Part shown: positions 838 to 16,107 of the stretch, in pieces
Layout: the number at the start of each line of letters is the position of its first letter
Position numbering within the stretch: the stretch's first letter is position 1
From: Girardia tigrina
Lineage: Eukaryota
Direction: 5' to 3'
Length of the DNA stretch: 64,000 nucleotides
Assembly: GCA_001938485.1 (NCBI GenBank)
Contig: MQRK01252658.1
Coordinates: forward strand, 1 to 64,000
Program-made: the position numbers and the translations under genes
The notes under the pieces: generated by a model
Told to the model about the DNA's origin: nothing
The model's input: the letters and a program-made list of their open reading frames with translations, nothing else
The model's database searches: none

Positions 838-3692
838 CAGTGGCGTCGATCTGTTTTCATTATTGGGGTGGCGAGATATGCAGATCGCATTTTTAGTTTG
901 ATCAATTTCGCTTATTGAGATCCTCGTGCTTACAAAGTCATACAGTACGATTTTACCTACTGGGGCCCTGTAACTGAGCCGTAGATACGTACCACAATAT
1001 AAAAAAATACTAAAAATTTATTCTTCGTCCACAAATTTTTCCAGTAATTATTACAAACTTCTTGCGACAAAGATCATTTTTCTGAATAAATTCATTAATC
1101 AACTCAATTGTATGTTGTCCACCTCATCTGGATATGTTGCAAGGACGAGAAGGTGATTCGTTCTCTCTTGGAGCATGGTGCTTCTCCTGCGAGTTTTGAG
1201 AAGCTTCAGTTGGCTGAAGGAACGCTCACCGGTTGCAGTTGAGGCTGGGCAGATAAAATACAATTTTATGAGACGGACCACCTGCGGAATCATATGCGTC
1301 ACTTGGCTGCTACTAATTCGCTTAATGATCTGCATGGGGATGGTAGTGATATTTTCCAACCCAAGGAGCTCGGCGACCAATTGCTGCTTGTCGAATTCTT
1401 CTGCATAATTATGGCATACACAATCCAAGTCACATTGCTCCACAGTGTATCCCTGCCAGCTGTTCAGTAGAATTTTCTCTGTGGCTATCAAGATCGGCAT
1501 TGTATTGTTCTCTATTTTCTCATTCAGTTTACACAGAATGCAATCGAGTTAGTCGAAATAAGCCACGCGGTAATAGTCCATTGGGGTTGAAAAGTGATGT
1601 TGTTTACTTGACTGAAATTGTACAGGTGCCCGGGATTATCGAGGTATTTTGGATTTGTCTAAGGCAGACTGCCAATCAGTTGAGAATCGATCTTCCGTTC
1701 GATCCGAAGCCAGCTCCAAAGTGGCACAATGGAAAAACTGAAAGCCCGCACCGGCGGACGTTGCTTCACTTTGAAGACTGATGCTCAATCGATCGGTGAT
1801 TTCCAAAAACAGAGTTGCCAGAATCAGACCGAGAAAAGAACTCAAATTCTGTGTGTCGTCGTAAAAATCCACAGGCCTTAGAGTTCACAGATTTATCATT
1901 GGATTCGAGTGCTTCCACAATCACAAGCAGCATCTCATCAACACGTGCGATTGAGCGATATATCACTGTAAAACTTGTGGAACAGAGTGGACGCAGCTGG
2001 GTTTGAGGAGACCATATAGCCTCTGACACAAAACGAACCAAAGCACATCGTTTTGGTGATCCTCGCATAAACGTTATGAGTTCGTGAATGAGTTGAAGGA
2101 AGTCACGCATGAGGGGCCCTCTTGAGACACCAACCTACTCTGCCAGATTCATGCAGTATATTTAGCAGTGTGTTTTGACAACACTTGGAGATTTCTCTTG
2201 AATTCAATTAGCAACTCTGATTGGCTCACCTTGGAAATCTGCTGCGCCCTTAAAACACACAGCTTTATAATCCTTCATTTCCAAATTTAGTCGAAGTAAA
2301 ACATCTTTAATGGACCTGAAAATTAGTGGGCTATCACAATGATCAAGTGATTACATTCTTCCACATCAAAGTTGTCACTAACTGTTCGATGACATAGCGT
2401 GAGCTGCTCCTGCCTGCTGACGTTTGCTGTTTCCTTAGCAATGATGCCTAAATATTTTGTTTCCTTTGTTACTTTTGCGAAATGGCGAATTATGGTAAGG
2501 GGCATGCTCTGTAAAAGTTCTTCCTGAATTTCTATCGATGTCCATGTGGTCTTTCTATTCAACCAGAGAAGTGAATCACGTGAGTCACCGCATCGGAGCT
2601 TTATTATTTATTTGTCTTTTTGTCTTGAAATTGCTGTTCACATCTTAATGTCCACGAATAACGAGGCTTTGATGCACTAGAAACAGAAGTGAGGAAAACA
2701 CCTGCGTTAAATATTCTGTGGCCCTCTTTCTTTCAGCTTCATTTTGAAGATTAAATTGGTTCAGAACATTGCTGCCCTTCAAGAGATTCGAGAACTTGTA
2801 GGCAGATTGACAGTGCGAAAGACTTCTCGCATGATCCCTGAAATGCTGGGTTGCCTTCTTCCAATATGTGAAGCCCTTAGAATAGATGCGTAGAATATGT
2901 GGATCGTCTTTTGTCTTTTTGAAAGGAAGTTCTGTGACAATCTCTAACTTCTCGGTTGACTGACTTGAAGAACAGCTCGAAATCACCTCGTTTACGTCGT
3001 GAGTGTCCCCTGATGTTTAGTTTAGATGGGAGTCGAATGACCGGTTGTAGCACTCTTGAAAAAAGTGTCGATTTGGCGCATATTCTAAAAAATAAATTAA
3101 AGTAAATTCAAAATGTATGACGGTATCGGAATAGTTTTGAAAATCACTTAATTGCATCATAATAAATTAGAGTTATAAATCACAAGAACAGAAAATGATG
3201 AACTCTTTTAAAATTACACGAAATGAATTTTTTAACCATTCACAACATTTTAAACATTTTACATCAACAACAAAACCAATTTAAAGCGTTCAAAAAAAAG
3301 CAATTTTCGTTTTACATAGTAATAATTTTTAATAAAATACAGTTTTACATAAAATAATAATAATAATTTCACAAAAAATTTTCCTTTAAAATCTAAATTT
3401 GTTATATATATATATATACAATTACAGTTTTTATTAAGTTAAATTATTAATTTCCATCAATGATTCGCTTGCTCTTTTCATTTAATTTGCAAATGTTACC
3501 GACTTAACTAAATTACAAAACAGGACCGAATATGCTGTACTAAAGGGAAAGCCTATATTTAAAATGGTAAAATGAGTGATAATTCGAAAAGGTTATGCAA
3601 ATTATTTGGGGGGCCGAAAAGATACTCTCACCCCTTAAAATATTATTGGGGGTGTGCCGCCCCTTCGCTCCCCCCTAAGATCGACTCCACAG
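838..3692 (-). mobile_element. hAT DNA transposon (ZMYM1/THAP12-like transposase), decayed, both ends present
   Basis: TIRs CAGTGGCGTCGATC / GATCGACTCCACAG and a perfect 8-bp TSD CAAGAGTG (830-837, 3693-3700). ORF fragments: GFTYWKKA, LVIRGH, SIEIQEELL, QEQLTLCHR, SPKR, and the dimerisation motif PASTATGERSFSQLKLLKTRRRSTMLQER. Confidence 0.92.
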
Positions 3693-5321
3693 CAAGAGTG
3701 TGCGCCTTTAATGCACGGACACGCTTTGTTTTCCCTTTGAGAAATGATGATCATGTTCCTTCGTTTTATGATTCTGAAGACTTTTGACTGTATAAACGCA
3801 TTTAGCGCAACAGGAAATTGGTTCTGAAACACTCCCGTATCCGTGATATTATCCAGCCAAAAACTCAGAATCACAATGGGGATTACTCCTGGACAGTTCT
3901 CATCGATTTTATCATTTAATATTTCTACATAGACAGACAGTGGCATATAATGTTCAAAAGTCTAGTGCATATCTCTGTTTCTGCTTTTTTACTACTTGGA
4001 TGTGTATAATAAAAGTACCTTGGATTTGATGATCAATTAATGAATGCCATCAGTTTTGTAACTTTTGTGATAGTTATCCATAAAACATTTGAATGAACCA
4101 CCCCCTCTCTGTGTCGTCGACACCGTTACGAGATGCATATTCTTAATCGTGATCCGACTAATGCGCTCCGGCAAATGTGCACCGGCAAAAGCGCGCCACG
4201 ACAAATGCGCTAAAATAAATTTAATAAATGTTTCTGAAAATATGTTGATTTTATATTACTAATTCGTTATTACTAAAAACTTTTTTGAAATGCAAATTTT
4301 AAAAATGTATAAATTTATAAATATAAAAATTATTTTTTTATAAATATTAAAAAAAATTGTTTTAAATATCTACAAACAAAAAAATTAATTTTGAATATAA
4401 TGAATATCATCNNNNNNNNNNNNNNNNNNNNNNNNNNNNNNNNNNNNNNNNNNNNNNNNNNGCTGTACTAAAGGGAAAGCCTATATTTAAAATGGTAAAA
4501 TGAGTGATAATTCGAAAAGGTTATGCAAATTATTTGGGGGGCCGAAAAGATACTCTCACCCCTTAAAATATTATTGGGGGCGTGCCGCCCCTTCGCTCCC
4601 CCCTAAGATTGACGCCACAGCAAGAGTGTGCGCCTTTAATGCACGGACACGCTTTGTTTTCCCTTTGAGAAATGATGATCATGTTCCTTAGTTTTATGAT
4701 TCTGAAGACTTTTGACTGTATAAACGCATTTAGCGCAACAGGAAATTGGTACTGAAACACTCCCGTATCCGTGATATTATCCAGCCAAAAACTCAGAATC
4801 ACACTGGGGATTAGTCCTGGACAGTTCTCATCGATTTTACCGACAGACAGTGGCATATAATGTTCAAAAGTTTAGTGCATATCTCTGTTTCTGCTTTTTT
4901 ACTACTTGGATGTGTATAATACAAGTACCTTGGATTTGATGATCAATTAATGAATGCCATCAGTTTTGTAACTTTTGTGGCAGTTATCCATAAAACATTT
5001 GAATGAACCACCCCCTCTCTGTGTCGTCGGCACCGTTACGAGATGCATATTCTTAATCGTGATCCGACTAATGCGCTCCGGCAAATGTGCACTGGCAAAA
5101 GCGCGCCACGACAAATGCGATAAAATAAATTTAATAAATGTTTCTGAAAATATGTTGATTTTATATTCCTAATTCGTTATTACTAAAAACTTTTTTGAAA
5201 TACAAATTTTAAAAATGTATAAATTTATAAATATAAAAATTATTTTTTTATAAATATTAAAAAAAATTGTTTTAAATATCTACAAACAAAAAAATTAATT
5301 TTGAATATAATGAATATCATC
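3534..5321. repeat. Near-identical direct duplication (3534-4411 vs 4462-5321) flanking a 50-N gap
   Basis: Two ~870 bp copies differ by scattered SNPs and an 18-bp indel. Both abut the gap, which suggests uncollapsed haplotypes. Confidence 0.9.
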
Positions 5322-9543: not shown

Positions 9544-10321
9544 TAATTACAATAAATTAAAATTTACACGTGATTATTCAATTAAAACATAGCATTTTAT
9601 TAAATCACATTTATTTACACTGTAGATTTAATTTTTTGAATGTCTTTGAATCATATGCTATCTAAAATAATTGATTCAAATCGATAAAAAAGTCAATATT
9701 GTTTAAAATTCTGAATCTAATTTTTATCGTATTTACTCAGTCCCTCATATAATGGATAAACGGTTAAAATGTTAGTGGAAATTGAAGACAAATCTGCCGT
9801 GCATCAAAAAAAAAGAAATTCAATATAATGAATACCAAGTCTGTCAAAACGAAGAAAATTAGTGATTACTTATAATCACCAGAATTTAAAAATTTAATTT
9901 ACGTGGAATGAAGATGAAGAAATTTATATATATAAAATATATTATATATATAAAAATTTTCGTTATATATAATATATTTGTCTAAAATGTTTTTTGTCGG
10001 TCACGCTATGATGAAAATGTGAAATCGCAGAGGCACCCTTGCGAATCCACGTAAAAATGTGGTCAATCGGGATAGCCCACATCAAGACGGTTCTGGTTAT
10101 GCAGCGCCATCTTCGAAAGACGGTGAGAGCCAACTTAATTGAACGACTGTTAAATCAACACAGAATTCGAAACAATTAATAATAAGAAATTTAAAAAATA
10201 ATGGCAAATTTTTATTAAAATCAAGAAAGCCATTCAAATCAAATTTTATTTTATCTAAAGATGAATTGGATTTACTAAAATTTGGTCCAAAACATGGATT
10301 TCGAAAGAAATTAGATAGATT

Positions 10322-13300
10322 TGTTTTTAATAACAAATTACAAGCTTGAGAAGTAAAATAACCACTGTCTTTAAAGTTCGCGCCCGCAATCGACACGATA
10401 AAACAACGGTTCATAATTCCAGTTTATTCATCGTCATCACACGCCCCCGTGATCTCATCATCAAGCATTTAGTAATCACTGAACCATCTGGGCGGACGTC
10501 GAGCCCTCAGCGGTCTGGCTGGTGAATGAACGATCAACGCCGGTCGGATCATATCCTCATCTGCTTGTTCTCCGGTCGCGGCCTCCTCTTCGTCCTCACT
10601 TCTCGAAGTTGCTTCAACAGTCGAATGTGCCGACATTGGTCGCATGTGTCTCACATCAGCTGCGTGTCTTGGGACTCCATCTACTTCAACTGATGTTGCA
10701 GAGTTTACTCGCGAAACGACCCCTCGGCGCCAACGAGTGGTGCATCGCGCTCCACCCGGCTTAACGTAGACTTGATCACCAGGTGCAAAATCCTTTCCGT
10801 CATGCCGTCTTGCACTCGATTTCGCCATCGGGAAGCGCCATTCGTACATATAAATCCTGTTACTAGGAACTGATTAGTCGCTTGTCTCGTGTTTAGGTGT
10901 TACATTGTAGTAAAACACCATATCCATCACATCACCACCGGATCTTGCCGCCATTCACTTTATCGTGTGGTGATTCCGCTCAACAACGCCATTTCCAGAC
11001 GGTCTGTACGTGCAGCAATAAATGATGAATACGTTCCACGACTTGCACAGACTTTGCAATTTATCTGCTCTGAAACACTTCCCATTATCACACAGTAATT
11101 CGCTGGGCGATCCCCTTTCTCTGAATAACTCCAATAATGTTGCCGCCACAGATTCAGCAGTCTCGTCCATCAGTCGCTTCCAAATCGCAAAACGGCTTGA
11201 TTCGTAATCAACGCATGTGAAATAAGTCTCCCCTCCATAATGTGTTATGTCGCAACTAAGACAATGCCAATTTGTTGCTACCTCTAACTCTCATTTTGTC
11301 CACCACACTGCTGCAGGATCAATCGACCGACAACGGTCGCATTCGGATTTCACTCTGGTTACTTCGTCTTCGTTCACAGCTTCATACACCTTCTTAACCA
11401 CGAATACTGTCCTGTCTACTCTGAAATGATGCAGCGAGTGGATTTCTTTATTGTCTTTGACTGATGGCGCAACGCCAGACAGAGTCGTTAGTAGATATTT
11501 TTTGCGAGTGCTTCCACCAGTGTGCAGGAACTCTAGTCAACTCGTCGGTTTTATTCTCGGCTGATTTCACTAACGATATTTTCAACTAGACTTCATATTC
11601 TTGTATTAATTGCTCCAATAAAAACAAACATCTTTTTACCAATGCGTCGGAAAGTCCGTCCACGTGTTGATTCTTATTATTTTTGTAACAATTATTATTA
11701 ATACATTTATTACCATTCAAATTTCCTTCTAAAATTAATTCCGAATTCTCGCTAGCACTCGTTTATCACCCGTGACAACAGATTTCACCCACGAACATAC
11801 TGTAACCGAATCATACAATATCTCAATTTCCTTCACATCCCATGCTAATGCCACGTTCACCCCTTTCAACACTGCCTCTGATTCCGCTAAATTTATATGG
11901 CAGATATCGTCTTTTTTCCGCAACCAACAATTATCTTCCACGATTGAGTGGTTTAGCTCCAAATATACTCCAATAGCCAAACTGCTGGTGTCACACCACA
12001 TACGGCCTTTTTTCATCTTTTGGATGTCCCACACTCCACCCACCGGGTCATCAGCGTCCAGCCGCTTCGAAATGTCATTTAAAATATTCATACTTGTCTT
12101 ATCTATTTTCTCGTCCCACTTCCTCTCACTCACCATACGTTTCAAAAAACTACCGGCTGGTCTTAGCCAACCTGCAATCGGTAAATGCCCGGTCACTTAC
12201 CCGCACCACGAAAAAATCTCCCTTTTCGTCGACTCTGCACTCACTTCTTGTATCACATTGTCCCGTTTCCATCTCGTCACTCCGTTCTCTTCATATATCC
12301 GCAATCCTAGAACTTTGCATCCGCACAACTTCTCAGCTGGTTTTGCCAGTAGTCCAAAACTCTCAAGCACACTTAACACCTGTTGACTACTGACTCTGTT
12401 CAGATCTACTATGATTTCATCCACGTACAAATCCGTAGCCTCCCTAATGGATGGATCTCTCGCTAGCACGAATTTGATCACCTCCGACATTATCTTTGGT
12501 GCTACATTTAGGCCGAAACCAAGACGAGTTAACGCATACACCTTCCCCTTATAGTGAACAAGCTGAGATTTCCAGAACTCCGGATCCATGTGAAGCTGCA
12601 TGTACGCGGTTTTTAAATCAATCACACAAAGATTTGACCCCATTTGACGTAATCTCCGAAGTTTTCGATACAAATGTTACTGGTCGCAGAGTGGCTAGAA
12701 ACGTATCTATTCAGCTCCCGGAAATCCATCACCAGCCGAACTTTGCCTTTGTTGTGCTGAAGAACCACCATCAACAGAATGATCCTTTCCTCAGGCTCAT
12801 CACTCTCGATCAACCACCCTTCTTGAATCCACCTGTCTATTTCTGCTTCAAACTCTCCCTGCAAGTCTTTGTGAACTTGATAAAGAGAGACATTGTTCCT
12901 TAACACAACATCTCCACTCAATTTTAACAGTTGATACCTGTTGCCATCAAACACTACTTATTCCTTATCGACAAATTCCAACTGCTGTTCCACCTCACGA
13001 AATGGCGTGCTCCCGGTGACAACCTCTTCTTTTGCTTTACTAGTCACCATACCAATACTACACACATTCCCTGCGGTTAACAAACTCGATTCCGTTGCAA
13101 ATACAGCATCTCCATGTTTGTCGATGTGAACGTCTCCTAATCTTTGTATCCCATCAAACCAATAATCAAATCACACCCAGGTAAGGCGTCAATCACCAAA
13201 CAACTTAAAACAACTACCGTCCTCACATTAACATTTACTTCACACACGTGTGTACATCTGACGGATTCGCTATTCATCAGCATGATGTCTACTCGTGCCT

Positions 13301-14280
13301 TCCTGATTTTAGACGACTTGACAACGCCTCTAACTACGATTGAACAGCTGCAGCACGAATCTACAAACATGCTCACCATCACACCATTCACTTCCACAAC
13401 AAACCCTGGCAACTGCGCAGTCTTCGGCGGAGAAACAGCTGCGCATTTCTGTTACAGACTCGCCCCAAAGATCTGCAGAATTTGGCTATGGGCCCCACGG
13501 TATTACATTTAAAACATCGTCTTCTGTTCCGCAAGTTATGACTCACCTCATCGACTGATGCTCCTGGGGGTTCCAGTTCCTCTGTAACTCGACGTGACCG
13601 TGGAATTCTCACACGAAAATTTGACAGTAACTTCTGCGTTATCCCGACCAAATACGCCTCTGATTTAACGATTGACATTGCCATTACGATAATCTCGGCC
13701 AATTACAAATCTTCTATGAAACACGCAGATCTGATTTGCTACTTTGCAAAATCCGGCTAGCCTCGAATCAACACACTTTTTATGCATTCATCGCTTGACT
13801 TACAATCAATAATATGCACTAACCTCTTGATATCGGCAACGTATACATCTATTGGTTCAACGCCTGCGAATTTTCTGTGACAGAGTTCTTCAAACGCGAT
13901 AACTCGATCTATGCAAAATGCTTTTTCAAGTGCACCACTCAATCGTCAATGTCCGTTTTCTTCTCATCAACCAGTCCGTCATATACAAGAAATGCCCATT
14001 TGGATAAGAACAGTGGTAATATAGTATCCAAATCGGATAGCTTCTGCAAACGCGCTACCAACTCGAACTTGGAGATCCACTCTGAAAAATCCTCGATCCC
14101 GTCGTAGCATTTGACGATATTTCCTAATTTCACCGACATTTGCCGCGATAGCTTGTATTTAATAACAAATTACAGCTAGAGAGGTAAAATAACAACTGCC
14201 TTTAAAGTTCGCGCTCGCAATCAACTTAATGTGACAATAAAAAAACATTTCATAATTCCAGTTTATTCATCGTCATCACA
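10322..14280 (-). mobile_element. Compact full-length LTR retrotransposon (gag-PR-RT-RH-INT order, Ty3/Gypsy-like), frameshifted
   Basis: TG...CA LTRs at 10322-10441 and 14154-14280, and a 5-bp TSD AGATT (10317-10321, 14281-14285). gag starts at 14139 and has a degenerate zinc knuckle CFKCNTVGPIAKFC. Protease VDSC, RT DLKTAY / LGFGLNVAP / YVDEII, RNase H WCDTS / HINLAE, integrase CDNG / SGNGVVER. Confidence 0.93.
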
Positions 14281-16107
14281 AGATTTAAGTTCCAATCGTC
14301 TGTTGAATCTATTTATTTAAATTTTAATGAAATTATTAATATTGATTTTGATAATTTTAAAAACACGCTTTTTAAGAGTACATCAGATTATTTAAACAAA
14401 AATCAGAAACAGTGTCATAGAGATTTTTCTATTTAAAAAAACCTGTCAAAAAAGACATTATTGTTTGTAAATTTGATAAAGGTAATGGTTTAGTTGTGTT
14501 GGATAAATCTGGTTATCTTAATAAGCTTCATGAAGTGTAAGAAGGTCCACAATTCAAAAAATTAGATAATTTTCGTAAAAATGAGAAACTTCCCCCATTG
14601 AAAGATGAGGAATTTCTACGTTCTCTTTTAAGTAAACTTTTTAACAACGGTCACATGGATAAGGATGGTATTCCAATAAGACATGTTTTATCGATGATTC
14701 AAACATCTCAATACTGTATTGCAAAATTTTTGGATTCGAAATTAAAACGTTTGGTTTCCTCTGAGTGTAAGGATAGCTATGAATTTGTTGAATTTATTTC
14801 AAACTTTGATTTGGGTAATAAAATGAATTCATGGTATCTTTTGACATTGTAAGTCTCTTCACCAATGTCCCATTGATGGAAATAATTTATCCGTGTTGTG
14901 ATGTCTGGAAATGTAATAGTGGTGAGCATTATAGGTTTGATGAGTTTGCTTTTCGTGAATTACTTACTTTTGCAACATCAAATGTTCATTTTTTTGTTTA
15001 ACGATAATTGGTATAAACAGGTAGATGGTGTTGCCATGGGTTCTCCTTTGGCACTAACACTTGCATCCATTTTTCTATCTAACAGTGAAAATAAAATTCA
15101 TTTGTTTTCGGGTGTTATACCTTTAGCTTATTAAACGATATTTTGATGATATTTTTCTTGTTTTCAAAGAACGTGAAAATATGTTGCCGTTTTTAGCTTA
15201 TATGAATTCTCTTCATTATAATATTGTTTTCACGGTTGAGCTTGAGAAGAATGGTGTTTTACCATTTTTAGATTTGTTAATTGAGAGAAAAGGTAGTCGT
15301 TACGAGACAGAGATTTATAGAAAGGAAACAGATACAGGATTATATACTAATATCAAAAGTTTCTGTGAAAATAAGTATAATAGAAGTATGATAAAAGGTT
15401 TTTTATTTAGGTGTTGGTCTCTATCATCCACATATGAAAAAGCAGATGCAAGAATAGATAAACTAACGGAACTATTGCAGAACAAAAAGGGCTATTCGAA
15501 ATCATTTTTCGAGAAACTAACTAATGAGACGATAGATTGATTAATGAATAAAGAAAATGAGGGTAAATACGAATTAAAACCCGATAAATTATCGAATGAA
15601 AATTCTAATATTGGATATACACTAATCGTTCCTTATTCAGAAGGTTACAGAAAATTTAAAACGTCCATTTTAAAATCAATAGATAGTAAAAATTTGAATT
15701 TAAAATGTTTTTCTAAATCTTACAAAATTCAAAGTATGTTCATCAATAAATCTGGTTAATCAATTTTCGTGTAATGAGTGCAACGTCACATAGATTGGAG
15801 AGACGTCTCGTCATCTCTGTAAACGGATTCAATAGCATGGACGATCGGATAATGGTAGTAATATTGCTGGGCTCATGAAGATTTGTAGATCGGAGATGAA
15901 AACAACTAATTTTAAAATATCTTGCAGTAATTTTAAAAAAATATTGTGAGTTACTTGTGAGGTATTATTGATTAAATCACTCAATCCGTCCATTAATGTC
16001 CAAACAAGTCTCTGCCACTTTTTTGAAAATGTTTAATTAGTTATTATATAAGATGTTCGCATAATCATCAATTTGCTCTATATAATACAGTAAAATTGTT
16101 GTTAATT

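Follow-up and report, generated by a model that had tools for sequence, protein, structure and literature searches.

What primes an LTR retrotransposon whose 5' LTR is not followed by a TGG-type site is the question raised by a decayed element in a stretch of Girardia tigrina DNA (contig MQRK01252658.1, 64,000 nucleotides, hereafter the window). The element occupies 14280–10322 of the minus strand (3,959 bp) and is an LTR retrotransposon, with direct TG...CA LTRs, a target-site duplication, a purine tract, gag-pol and a DDE integrase. A 2019 survey distinguishes three primer types for such elements: the tRNA 3' end, a half tRNA produced by cleavage in the anticodon stem, and a self-primer (PMC6317226). 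For this locus, the original prediction proposed a short 5' tRNA fragment cut in the D-arm.

The domains of the element are ordered gag-PR-RT-DUF7047-RNase H-IN, and its lineage has a length of about 4 kb. The inner end of the LTR is set by the 3' LTR, which diverges right past the same CA, and by the 5-bp duplication. The predicted succession of 5' LTR, 12-mer, AA and gag ATG proved exact to the nucleotide (Table 1), and TGG is absent from the next 33 nt. The gag frame opening at this ATG runs into a stop after 66 codons. DNA reads of one run display no alternative letter within the site at 10% or above, and ARAGORN detected no tRNA across the window. Three small, probably RNA runs bearing the same species label contained no match to 13700–14300 and are uninformative on expression. 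The LTR element is itself nested in a decayed, RT-bearing element on the plus strand (about 10200–10316 and 14286–15900), with Penelope-like motifs recognized by eye and no Pfam match; elsewhere, window 3534–5243 holds a tandem duplication of about 910–930 bp units that are 98% identical.

Table 1 Features of the LTR retrotransposon in the window
Feature	Position	Strand	Remarks
5' LTR	14154..14280	-	127 bp, TG...CA
Putative primer-binding site, 12 nt	14142..14153	-	complements nt 1-12 of host tRNA-Phe(GAA) exactly; no spacer between site and LTR
Leader remainder AA (14141-14140) and gag ATG (14139-14137)	14137..14141	-	
gag, with stops and frameshifts; C-terminal piece with decayed zinc knuckle	13388..14139	-	intact relatives: CCHC knuckle
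Aspartyl protease piece	13137..13451	-	Pfam PF13650, E 2.6e-4
Reverse transcriptase, split over two frames	12197..12957	-	
DUF7047 and RNase H piece	11735..12196	-	Pfam PF23088, E 4.3e-15; PF13456, E 1.5e-3
Integrase core and C-terminal pieces	10469..11290	-	Pfam PF00665, E 1.7e-12 for 10958-11290
Purine-rich tract preceding 3' LTR	10442..10456	-	
3' LTR	10322..10441	-	120 bp, 84% identical to 5' LTR
Target-site duplication, right copy, 5 bp	14281..14285	.	
Target-site duplication, left copy, 5 bp	10317..10321	.	

The caveat that the match came from a single decayed copy is superseded by the host genome assembly, which contains 1,122 exact copies of the Phe-type 12-mer versus 8 of a reversed control. 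The first 30 copies belong to many unrelated LTR families and are preceded by CA in 28 cases, and none of the 60 loci examined is a tRNA gene. RT identity between groups of host Phe-type families is as low as 34–43%, yet all of these share one common 12-mer. Within the window's own family, 14 of 30 copies carry the exact site and 16 contain substitutions or a 3-nt deletion. A TGG-type family consensus, named in the original prediction as an argument against it, did not emerge, as TGG-type sites were found in 0/30 of these copies and at 0/58 readable junctions of metagenomic relatives (see below).

A degenerate site search in the host genome yielded 3,036 matches compared with 888 for its control and exposed a second class, with 72 of the first 100 matches listed being the complement of nt 1–12 of host tRNA-Lys(UUU). 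The exact Lys-type 12-mer occurs 2,443 times versus 11 in the control, an upper figure that overcounts such sites because, among 20 fetched loci, three lie inside the RT coding region and one lacks the CA; 27 of 30 Lys-type loci resemble an LTR end followed by site and ATG. The copies inside the RT coding region represent one family (L285, L293, L294), whose tree neighbours L265 and L275 bear a Phe-type site at the LTR, and were excluded from labelled counts. Copies L268, L269, L270 and L277, in which 1.3–1.9 kb separate the repeat ends, are short forms that carry the 12-nt site and are either non-autonomous or have internal deletions. No third primer class was identified in the host genome: two further patterns gave 533 matches versus 1,120 in the control and 185 versus 230, the latter mostly decayed Phe sites. 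Host Lys-CTT, Thr and Ile-TAT tRNAs share the same layout and have no matching site class among the matches listed. The vertebrate-type Phe variant of the site, whose tRNA-Phe counterpart is verified by a primer for human tRNA-Phe (PMC10505166), is likewise absent among the 100 degenerate-search matches listed.

Pairing with tRNA-Phe nt 1–12, initially argued from a resemblance to metazoan tRNA-Phe 5' ends, was borne out in the host itself, as its tRNA-Phe(GAA), read from interrupted copies only, starts with the exact complement of the 12-mer. This complement extended into the D-loop was located at four places in the host genome, and a T-arm pattern retrieved six 3' pieces. Locus L082 carries a tRNA-Phe 5' piece (89–119) and, 1.8 kb further downstream, a 3' piece that shares a 16-bp duplicated overlap with it; relaxed ARAGORN, which makes many spurious calls and of which only the Phe call spanning L082 was used, joins both into one tRNA-Phe(GAA) with fully complementary acceptor strands. 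No intact tRNA-Phe gene was found among 62 Rfam matches (27 loci scanned), and no other GCC-starting tRNA-Phe among 100 matches (28 loci assessed by scanning, the others by their 15-mer); three matches with a vertebrate-type tRNA-Phe start turned out not to be tRNAs. The intact host tRNA-Phe arrays are probably collapsed in the assembly. Host tRNA-Lys(UUU) is intact there. All assembled tRNA-Phe(GAA) copies found (L082–L086; C181207, C56195, C241992, C250656, C250815) are split in the region of the D-arm and anticodon stem by mutually related inserts of about 1.8 kb in L082 and 5.6 kb in L083, which lie within a short tandem unit, contain ORFs and possibly represent a tRNA-Phe-targeting mobile element. 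Three near-identical contigs (L065, L067, L068) carry a tRNA-Phe 3' piece with a terminal CCA that apparently arose by retroposition of the mature tRNA.

The borders of the site are sharp. Its spacer to the LTR is zero in the window copy and in L269, L272, L277, L289, L291, L129, L135 and L170, with the junctions of L268 and L270 aligned to within 1–2 nt. Just 12 of the 1,122 Phe-type matches extend to the C at tRNA nt 13, and four of these are tRNA pieces. At the opposite border, the position after the 12-mer (+13) holds 0.27 bits across 66 non-redundant sites, a profile in which the 2.0-bit columns are fixed by the search patterns; with this position nearly free, the paired stretch does not go beyond nt 1 of the mature tRNA. 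For the 12-bp duplex of site and tRNA, an energy of -22.7 kcal/mol is predicted. An LTR-end hairpin overlapping the site, noticed by eye in the window family, does not form in the computed fold and is not common to other families, and a Pol III A-box was dismissed with only 5 of its letters present.

Relatives of the element are widespread. Of 7,991 scored candidates, 898 are protein matches to the lineage; its named members, identified from proteins and not primer sites, come from Hydra, Trichuris, Pomphorhynchus, Petrolisthes and Macrosteles. A metagenome set of 79 loci was derived from the best 80 of 105 confirmed, and the LTR-gag junction is readable in 58 of these, 21 being without junction. 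Such a 12-mer is present at 51 of the 58 junctions, a one-change version at six and a partial one at the remaining junction. It takes the form AGCTA-NNNN-GGC, once CGCTA, after a CA-type LTR end, and the middle letters of the 51 sites (TCGC 12, TCTA 11, TTTC 10, TCAC 8, TCCC 3, TCCG 2, five singletons; rows include near-copies, with 44 left after collapsing by flanks) appear to vary as tRNA 5' ends do. The L187 site begins with C, as required by nt 12 of elongator tRNA-Met type, and is one letter off the complement of the host elongator tRNA-Met start (nt 12 = G). In phage contigs, complements of the TCAC, TCGC, TCCC and TCTA variants begin real tRNA genes at 54/145 loci, Phe included, which is a weak parallel given that these are not the hosts and that the pattern was built tRNA-like. 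Viral contigs gave nine pattern matches to the RT and no confirmed relative.

The RT tree, built on 91 of 94 rows after removal of three that were too short, places the own-genome Phe-type families in separate branches that share one 12-mer, and for three of these families the best outside matches (56–58%) carry other site variants. These observations suggest that the site follows the host, through selection or recopying. Within the metagenome set, the variants are in addition grouped by lineage, with 20 changes for 61 labelled rows, a count made without shuffle control. Of the conservation and covariation that the original prediction called for, conservation is seen across copies and relatives, and host-by-host covariation of site and tRNA is shown for one genome only.

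The domain order PR-RT-RH-IN is of Ty3/gypsy (Metaviridae) type, and placement in this group rests on that order only. Pfam families PF17917 and PF17919 are unmatched in 43/43 members and RVT_1 scores are weak; DUF7047 is present in all 43 and a chromodomain in none. RNase H acidic residues D364, E400, D424 and D483 are kept in 42–43 of the 43 relatives. The PDB matches listed include no solved Ty3 RT, the Ty3 match being confined to the integrase, and RT clusters from the atlas comparison are unnamed. The RT and RNase H motifs of the lineage (window 11735–12957) appear closer to those of DIRS than of gypsy elements, despite direct LTRs and DDE integrase. Troyka elements (Repbase) generate a 3-bp target-site duplication, unlike the 5 bp found in the window copy, L269, L289 and L291.

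In LTR replication, the 3' end of the primer defines the inner end of the LTR. The first base of the site faces tRNA nt 12 and the primer 3'-OH has to adjoin the terminal CA, so nt 12 must be the last nucleotide of the primer. Judging from the sites and their borders, minus-strand DNA synthesis probably starts from a 12-nt 5' piece of a host tRNA ending at nt 12, a reading to which we assign a probability of roughly 0.8. The larger part of this estimate falls to cleavage by the element's own RNase H, a smaller one to a host-made primer and a sliver to other routes. The 12-nt 5' tRNA primer that we infer is thus in keeping with the original prediction, and the D-arm cut it invoked becomes one of two routes. 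In the route we prefer, tentatively and at slightly under even odds, the whole tRNA would be packaged, the Gag zinc knuckle would bring about annealing of its 5' end with the site, and element RNase H would nick the annealed tRNA between nt 12 and 13, adopting the geometry of Tf1 in trans. The fixed 12-nt length across tRNAs suits a ruler set by the element. RNase H is said to be required in Tf1 self-priming, in work by Levin from 1996. Tf1 is primed by an RNA 5' end that pairs with the site (PMC4600332, PMC10085805), and it requires a three-duplex structure (PMC10085805), of which no equivalent was found in the present elements. Retroviruses recopy their primer, whereas Ty1 and Ty3 do not (PMC7472051). 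A broader version of the preferred route, in which the deep and widespread DUF7047 lineage nicks intact tRNA at 12/13 with its own RNase H and recopies the 12 nt in each cycle, so that the site tracks the host tRNA, would constitute a fourth mode that bridges Tf1 self-priming and tRNA priming and is immune to 3'-tRF silencing; taken as a whole, we hold this to be conceivable but somewhat short of an even chance.

The host-made route, which corresponds to the original prediction and counts toward the probability given above, would have a longer 5' tRNA fragment, arising from a D-loop or anticodon cut, anneal by nt 1–12, with a host exonuclease trimming its tail to nt 12. Such a fragment could anneal without unfolding of the L-shaped tRNA, 5'-tRFs and halves are common (PMC7515703, PMC9904238), and copia-type elements employ a host-cut half tRNA (PMC6317226). 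However, in many samples, and irrespective of whether the tRNA is of Phe, Lys or Met type, the length stays at 12 nt, and just two of several host tRNAs of the same layout are used; we regard this route as rather unlikely. Lengths of 16–35 nt are described for tRFs (PMC7515703), and the 3' termini of 5'-tRFs fall within the D-loop or close to the anticodon loop (PMC9904238), as opposed to the implied primer end at nt 12, within a stem. A smaller chance goes to a positioning or packaging clamp, where an intact tRNA is bound by its 5' end and synthesis starts beside it de novo, protein-primed, or from the freed, unpaired 3' CCA. The divergence of the RT described above would leave room for an unusual start, but a missing spacer and a match that stops exactly at nt 12 are predicted for a primer end, CCA has nothing to pair with where TGG is lacking, and a second tRNA-Lys-pairing site does not exceed shuffled levels in 10/10 Lys-type elements.

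Two further readings dispense with a tRNA primer altogether. The site might be a sense relic derived from a tRNA 3' acceptor strand, it might serve 5' tRNA fragments as a regulatory target, or it might act as a translational signal ahead of the gag ATG; its last 7 nt are identical to the 3' acceptor strand of tRNA-Phe, and an ATG follows within 0–26 nt at 62/66 sites. Yet the acceptor stem of host tRNA-Lys contains a G-U pair at which the Lys-type site shows Watson-Crick complementarity to the 5' strand and does not match the 3' strand, ruling out a sense relic of the tRNA 3' end, and the first 5 nt of the site match nt 8–12, not the T-stem. Moreover, the distance to the ATG is variable where that to the LTR is constant, and the elements are without any other primer site, making a non-primer role highly improbable. 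Self-priming from the element's own transcript in the manner of Tf1 and sushi, an alternative already raised in the original prediction, would agree with the length and position of the 12-nt site, which resemble those of Tf1. The longest pairing between LTR and site is nevertheless distributed as in shuffled sequence across 133 sites, just one of them reaching 10 nt, the site complement is absent from the entire window element, one site is common to unrelated LTRs, and transcripts are not expected to begin upstream of the LTR. Self-priming is therefore refuted at the sequence level and retains hardly any weight.

The site is real, lineage-wide and well bounded, and it is apparently undescribed; the mechanism is what we infer from it. 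A search of the open literature, with Repbase outside its scope, returned no description of a site against tRNA nt 1–12, and we see a one-in-four chance of a prior note in subscription papers or Repbase Reports. The accessible parts of PMC4558846, PMC6934838, PMC3286476, PMC13524379, PMC3601003, PMC5055719 and PMC5445492 contain no matching description, and sequence-string searches yielded tRNA probes and primers or unrelated work, with no retrotransposon study among the matches listed. Surveys that search tRNA 3' ends only (e.g., PMC13524379) would score such elements as having no primer site. If true, priming from the tRNA 5' end would add a fourth LTR primer type with thousands of copies in one genome, reveal a new substrate for RNase H or a new job for 5' tRNA fragments, and link self-priming to tRNA priming; it also predicts escape from 3'-tRF control.

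The proposed mode shares features with several known systems. Ty1 and Ty3 possess bipartite primer sites, the second of which pairs with another tRNA arm, unlike the present lineage, where no second site above the shuffled maximum was detected in 10 Lys-type elements. Half-tRNA priming is employed by copia and Ty5. Osser, Bryco, Gymco-II and Bianca are further half-tRNA-primed Ty1/copia elements (PMC6317226), and the likeness to this mode extends to a 5' host tRNA fragment as the putative primer, a site beside the 5' LTR, and a missing TGG. There, however, the cut lies in the anticodon stem and its use is reported for copia lineages only, whereas the present lineage matches nt 1–12 of Phe, Lys and Met-type tRNAs with an implied end in the D-stem, and has its integrase after RNase H, not before RT as in copia. 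As in Tf1, Tf2, Tj1 and sushi, the extreme 5' end of an RNA would pair with a short, LTR-abutting site and a cut would be needed at the duplex edge (PMC4600332, PMC10085805); unlike in these elements, the RNA would be a host tRNA acting in trans, with no complement in the LTR and no chromodomain in the 43 members. Canonical 3'-CCA priming, as in retroviruses, Ty3 and most gypsy elements, involves the same two tRNA species at the same position, with tRNA-Phe used by IAP and tRNA-Lys-UUU by HIV and MusD (PMC7472051), but the present lineage, devoid of TGG, would exploit the opposite end of the tRNA and require it to be cut.
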